64,000 bases of DNA from contig CAXHJY010001117.1 of NCBI GenBank assembly GCA_964016885.1, positions 1 to 64,000 on the forward strand, in the 5' to 3' direction. Origin of the DNA: Eledone cirrhosa (lineage: Eukaryota). The position numbers and the translations under genes are program-made. Shown piece by piece: positions 16,060-16,109 of this stretch; the first letter of the stretch is position 1; each line of letters opens with the position of its first letter. Under the pieces are notes generated by a model. The model searched no databases. It was not told the DNA's origin and was given only the letters and a program-made list of their open reading frames with translations.

Positions 16060-16109
16060 CCATATCGAGGACAATTGTTTCACCTTAGCGGATCCTCAGC
16101 TCGTAATGG
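16060..16109 (-). ncRNA. Minimal type I hammerhead ribozyme (family C)
   Basis: Minus strand reads CCAU UA CGAG-CUGAGGA-UCC GCUAA GGU-GAAA-C AAUU G-UC-CUCG AU AUGG. It has the complete CUGANGA/GAAA core, a GUC cleavage triplet, stem I of 4+4 bp with a 2x2 internal loop, and a palindromic CAAUUG stem III. Confidence 0.85.

Follow-up and report, generated by a model that had tools for sequence, protein, structure and literature searches.

We conclude with high confidence that the 94-bp insert at positions 16034-16127 of the DNA analysed here, a 64-kb stretch of the Eledone cirrhosa genome that we call the window, is a truncated 3' end left by a high-copy Hydra-type Penelope-like element (PLE), carrying the hammerhead motif that belongs to that end. 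The copy is likely an inert fossil, and the GUC at its predicted cut site likely a random change from the GUU of its family. Lying between two (TA)n tracts and lacking an inverted arm, much as the original prediction had described it (about 95 bp, between TA tracts, no antisense arm), the insert aligns with the 3' end of a near-full-length copy at locus L045 with 95.8% identity over 96 columns and is the sole match of that element in the window. The epithet 'solitary' consequently holds locally; it fails for the genome at large, where a search of 3.0 Gb returned 768 candidates, with 53 matches from the best 40 scored, and near-full-length matches among those scored are 94-97% identical. The insert and its margins comprise the following features.

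16005..16033, unstranded: (TA)n target tract bordering the 3' end of the element (sequence repeat analysis)
16034..16127, minus strand: 3' end of a Hydra-clade Penelope-like retrotransposon, truncated on its 5' side and of the tail-less 'short' type (alignment to the L045 copy)
16060..16069, minus strand: stem I, 3' strand (sequence and pairing count)
16070, minus strand: position 17, C here and U in the family, with the predicted cut 3' of position 17 (exact 33-mer counts)
16071..16081, minus strand: GAAA core box (16081-16078), palindromic short stem III (CAAUUG, 16077-16072) and U16.1 (16071) (sequence)
16082..16092, minus strand: stem II region, 11 nt, with U·U at 10.1/11.1, two C-G pairs and a 5-nt loop (sequence)
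16093..16099, minus strand: catalytic core CUGANGA (C3-A9), here CUGAGGA (sequence)
16100..16109, minus strand: stem I, 5' strand, with distal 4 bp, 2-nt loop side and proximal 4 bp (sequence)
16127..16179, unstranded: (TA)n tract bordering the truncated 5' end of the element (sequence repeat analysis)

Read from the sequence, the minus strand from 16109 to 16060 forms a type I hammerhead motif in which CUGANGA, GAAA and NUH are all present, with C3-G8, and whose predicted cut falls between 16070 and 16069; positions within the motif follow the usual hammerhead numbering. Stem I is laid out as 4 bp, a 2x2 loop and a further 4 bp, and the palindrome of stem III spans 8 nt, from A15.1 to U16.1. 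Stem II is non-canonical: U·U stands in place of the canonical G10.1-C11.1 pair, which is absent, and just two Watson-Crick pairs are available. The original prediction thus placed the core and the minus-strand cut correctly and rightly recognized the short palindromic stem III, while its apparently intact minimal hammerhead has intact core boxes and a non-canonical stem II, whose U·U and two Watson-Crick pairs had gone unmentioned. A loose core pattern gave 12 matches at 5 places in the 64-kb window against 0.10 expected.

The identity of the parent emerges from the longer copies, in which homology extends upstream by up to ~1.5 kb, where the loci end, and enters a same-strand ORF. This ORF contains the reverse transcriptase (RT) motifs FYP, YRDD and FLD, in their customary naming, followed by a GIY-YIG-type domain with VVY and YVG. 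Pfam assigned no RT or GIY-YIG family to any of the 4 ORF fragments submitted; matches to Atlas features scored 0.96-0.98 and included GIY-YIG clusters (PF01541 on 23% of members). With the N-terminal 294 aa as query, 134 matches came from the best 133 scored among 24,383 candidates, and their open frames reach 722 aa. The element measures ~2.5 kb and is terminated by simple repeats of TA or a similar kind. Its single ORF, with RT preceding GIY-YIG, upstream of the hammerhead and on the same strand, is the arrangement of an EN+ PLE, and the 5' truncation, inverted partner and tail at one end seen among its copies are likewise those of this class. At locus L043 (4091-5376, plus strand), the remnant of another, more diverged RT and GIY-YIG element with similar motifs is stacked beside a copy of the window's family, which we refer to as family A.

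As defined by Craig et al. 2021 (PMC8557442), the Hydra clade is distinguished by RWK, DKT, a CxCX5C linker and CxxC/CxH around the conserved E and N, together with the absence of CCHH, a length below 3 kb and (TA)n targets. The ORF of the Eledone element has RWR (K to R), DKT, CSCRKPEAC (CxCX5C), CGLC (CxxC) before E and CPH (CxH) after N, no CCHH could be seen in it by eye, and the element inserts into (TA)n and is shorter than 3 kb. By these motifs and by-eye comparison, we assign the element to the Hydra clade. It resembles Hydra-1_Obim in its length of ~2.5 kb, C-terminal GIY-YIG, RW(K/R), DKT, CxCX5C and lack of CCHH, and it shares with the clade the (TA)n targets, a hammerhead located on the sense strand close to the 3' end, a stem II that opens with U·U, and a cut-site U (PMC8557442). 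The N-terminal half is collinear by eye with that of Hydra-1_Obim, yet the two are clearly different families: stem II comprises 7 bp in Hydra-1_Obim as opposed to 2 Watson-Crick pairs here, the tail measures ~66 nt here as opposed to the 30-40 nt described, and a 10-nt piece of the core and stem II of the window family is absent from the Craig et al. supplement (PMC8557442). By our own count from File S2 of that work, U·U occupies the base of stem II in 14 of 25 Hydra families (Penelope-13_HM being counted once), and at the cut site 10 of the 25 have U, 11 have A and 4 have C. The U·U families are called canonical by the authors of that study (PMC8557442); the U·U and U17 of the window family are Hydra-clade traits that have already been tabulated.

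The 5' ends of the copies vary, the sequence being continuous into the ORF, and their 3' ends fall preferentially at two points, ~37 and ~103 nt past U16.1; the 3' end point of the insert coincides with that of the other short copies. Among 42 loci of 3 kb, 17 hold a single piece, 25 have a partner on the opposite strand and 2 have a second piece on the same strand. The inverted loci comprise 21 that join a short with a long end, 2 in which the short end faces a partial tail, 1 that is borderline and 1 with two long ends, so that a short end is paired with a longer, tailed one in 23 of the 25. Such inverted pairs of a short and a tailed end are the PLE tail signature; the copy in the window has the short end and lacks a partner. 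The Poseidon element PAc likewise has two 3' end points and an optional tail, which Frangieh et al. 2024 explain by two internal RT start sites (PMC11167929). A sequence of events modelled on the PLE literature would begin with the endonuclease nicking the (TA)n tract; target-primed reverse transcription would then set out from the inner start site, which of the two is the one 37 nt past U16.1, leaving a tail-less end, and would halt after ~94 nt to give the 5' truncation.

It is tempting to regard so many short copies as a non-autonomous retrozyme- or SINE-like unit of ~95 bp that spreads itself via circular RNA, and animal retrozymes are indeed reported to derive from PLE pLTRs (bioRxiv 10.64898/2026.07.22.740005). 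Non-LTR retrozymes as described there share with the insert a type I hammerhead and the form of a short non-coding repeat from a PLE end. They are, however, built of head-to-tail tandem units, each with a hammerhead, an organization to which the insert does not conform, being the dispersed, truncated end of an ORF-bearing element with variable 5' ends. A direct tandem pLTR arrangement would correspond to the same-strand second piece seen in just 2 of the 42 loci of 3 kb, against inverted partners in 25, and in 0 of 6 longer loci; Hydra-1_Obim is listed as 'no pLTR' in the supplement of Craig et al. 2021 (PMC8557442). The prospect of tandem copies raised by the original prediction also came to nothing at the site itself, where no array was found at 16034..16127. 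We therefore judge a self-spreading unit of this kind to be very unlikely, and the truncated PLE end remains the reading that we prefer.

Counted as exact 33-mers over the whole genome, the family triplet is GUU, with 2,241 copies, whereas GUC occurs 18 times including the copy at 16070 (18 of 2,276), GUA 7 times and GUG 10 times. A T-to-C control change in loop II is found 19 times, and because the 18 GUC copies so nearly equal this neutral count, and are close to the 17 for GUA and GUG combined, active triplets are not enriched and GUC stands at the background level of mutation. Judging by these counts, the GUC at 16070 likely arose by random change from the family's GUU, and the GUC site of the original prediction, though present in the window copy, is a rare variant. 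The window copy departs from the majority at four positions (16115, 16070, 16065 and 16049) in a comparison with 38 copies from loci L002-L030, a sample that leans towards it, having been chosen for likeness to it. A separate GUC subfamily was considered and rejected, the GUC copies sitting on different backgrounds. An inverted partner accompanies the GUC copy in 7 of 12 such loci (L032, L034, L035, L037, L038, L040 and L042), and at least 5 of those partners read GUU. Three contig sets aligned on 15840-16420 have very high repeat depth, and no difference is listed for them at 16070, a result that is uninformative for short contigs.

With ViennaRNA, the stem III hairpin of a monomer is predicted at +2.4 kcal/mol and the self-duplex of the 8-nt palindrome at -6.4 kcal/mol, a difference that fits a dimer model, and the 10-nt palindrome of the GUU form is predicted to give an intermolecular duplex of -8.2 kcal/mol. 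The parent hammerhead would accordingly be capable at best of slow cleavage, as a dimer formed via the palindromic stem III. In the metazoan PLE hammerhead studied by Cervera & de la Pena 2014, the monomer is inactive and the activity of the dimer low, in vitro activity being low for metazoan PLE hammerheads even as dimers (PMC4209133). Those minimal hammerheads are similarly of type I topology with a 4-5 bp stem I and a palindromic stem III, and are mostly dispersed single motifs from truncated PLEs, so that the kinship proposed by the original prediction with short-stem III PLE hammerheads cleaving as dimers was right in kind. In those hammerheads, however, stem II is long (7-8 bp in S. mansoni), a bulged base follows A9 and G10.1-C11.1 is present, whereas the stem II of the window motif is very short and opens with U·U (PMC4209133).

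That the change from U to C at position 17 made a weak transposon hammerhead into a cutter of a host minus-strand transcript at 16070/16069 is, in our estimation, highly improbable. Intact core boxes and the preferred GUC, which the review literature describes as cleaving faster than most triplets, would lend themselves to such a gain of function, and stem I is predicted to form when the 50-mer is folded on its own (P 0.72-0.87). In each of the five folds, however, stem III has a probability of just 0.00-0.04, and pairing of the core with this copy's cut-site strand, to which C17 renders it complementary, is predicted for the 95-nt context. In that context stem I has a probability of ~0, and the MFE structure is more stable than the hammerhead fold by 12.6 kcal/mol, as compared with 8.6 for a GUU copy, although ViennaRNA ignores tertiary contacts and the predicted misfolding may overstate inactivity. 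Cleavage of a host transcript by the window copy appears unlikely, because the window holds no partner copy and no gene-like ORF was seen in 11000-30000, where introns would hide one. The absence of enrichment for GUC also counts against a gain of function. The stand-alone ribozyme cutting a host minus-strand transcript that had originally been envisaged thus gives way to a truncated transposon end, whose GUC could nevertheless outperform the parent in an engineered dimer.

Two sister subfamilies, B and C (L064-L083 and L084-L103), are present in the genome and differ in loop II and loop III; where coding DNA is present in B, it is 72-76% identical to that of family A. Both retain proximal stem I, the core and, in stem II, the U·U with its two C-G pairs, while N7, loop II, loop III and distal stem I change, N7 being the sole difference within the core. 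Position 17 is U in 21 of 21 copies of B and in 19 of 20 copies of C. The four base pairs of proximal stem I are paired in 96.9% of cases (16 distinct rows from two subfamilies), and the hammerhead pairs are possible in 98.4% of cells. Compensatory, two-sided changes numbered 0 in the 8 pairs examined, and the hammerhead fold is thus conserved without proof by covariation. A Watson-Crick kissing interaction between loop I and loop II fitted A and B and was rejected when its advance prediction failed in subfamily C (bulge AAA or AGA against loop GAAUAA); of the internal loop in stem I that had been proposed to contact loop II, the 2x2 loop itself is there and the Watson-Crick version of the contact is not upheld. 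The stem III palindrome of subfamily B has an odd length. At L009 an inverted pair of subfamily B is joined to a family A body, and copies of B and C share the tail of A. A chance match in AT-rich DNA, to which the want of a hammerhead match in Rfam (nothing at gathering score over the window, and no hammerhead match at E<=10 in 15900-16400) and a fold stability like that of shuffles (z-score -0.37) might point, has practically no probability, given that 100 Markov-resampled windows yielded 0 matches to a stem-checked descriptor and the window itself 2, that the motif stands at the published place of Hydra hammerheads, on the sense strand near the 3' end (PMC8557442), and that the loops change among three subfamilies in which core and stems persist, a pattern that refutes it.

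The window also holds a second hammerhead family, at 11717-11755 (minus), 11762-11800 (plus) and 36265-36303 (plus), which likewise has U·U at 10.1/11.1 and is distinguished by a GUA site, a 4-bp stem II and a longer stem III; its copies at 11.7 kb form a head-to-head pair. In the genome it yielded 1,044 candidates, of which the best 40 were scored, and no ORF linked to it was found in 15 loci. It is probably another TA-targeting PLE end. Motifs of other hammerhead families occur in the flanks of L037 (~3025, minus), L051 (~2756, minus) and L060 (~153, plus), two of the three with a fully paired stem II. Adjoining the TA tract, 16197-16366 is a very high-copy repeat with an internal 46-bp direct repeat, and it occurs in tandem, with a period near 99 bp, at locus L044. 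Copies of a dispersed repeat with a short conserved motif in common lie at ~16480-16800, 28278-28434, 35437 and 49157-49518, and we take this repeat to resemble a cephalopod SINE. Minisatellite arrays occupy 29689-30632, 18440-18666 and 42469-42995 (units of 68, 34 and 162 bp, respectively), and 62150-62612 is a degenerate tandem repeat with periods of 27, 85 and 224 that shows no long open frame in any of six frames.

It may be speculated that Hydra-clade hammerheads are a deliberately attenuated sub-type, marked by U·U at 10.1/11.1, a 2-bp stem II and U17, the last of which would extend the palindrome to 10 bp and tie up A14. On this view, which we regard as doubtful, they would be retained across subfamilies less for cutting than, in the main, to mark structurally the RT start sites that lie 37 and 103 nt downstream. 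Were attenuation true, rare GUC copies such as that in the window would be natural 'de-attenuated' controls. In PAc, which is of a different clade and whose hammerhead cleaves in vitro, hammerhead cleavage is dispensable for insertion in vitro (PMC11167929). No assay of a Hydra-clade hammerhead turned up in the literature searched, which is not proof that none exists; that literature included PMC6765202, PMC6155905 and PMC3138052. Similar short variants may already have been tested by Lunse, Weinberg and Breaker.

The locus itself matters little, being one among thousands of dead transposon ends, and it carries a caution that a textbook GUC in a single copy may be a random change away from the true family sequence. 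The family adds to the Hydra clade a high-copy PLE with three subfamilies, in all of which the GUU cut site and the very short stem II are retained. It offers material for asking whether PLEs need their hammerheads to cut at all.
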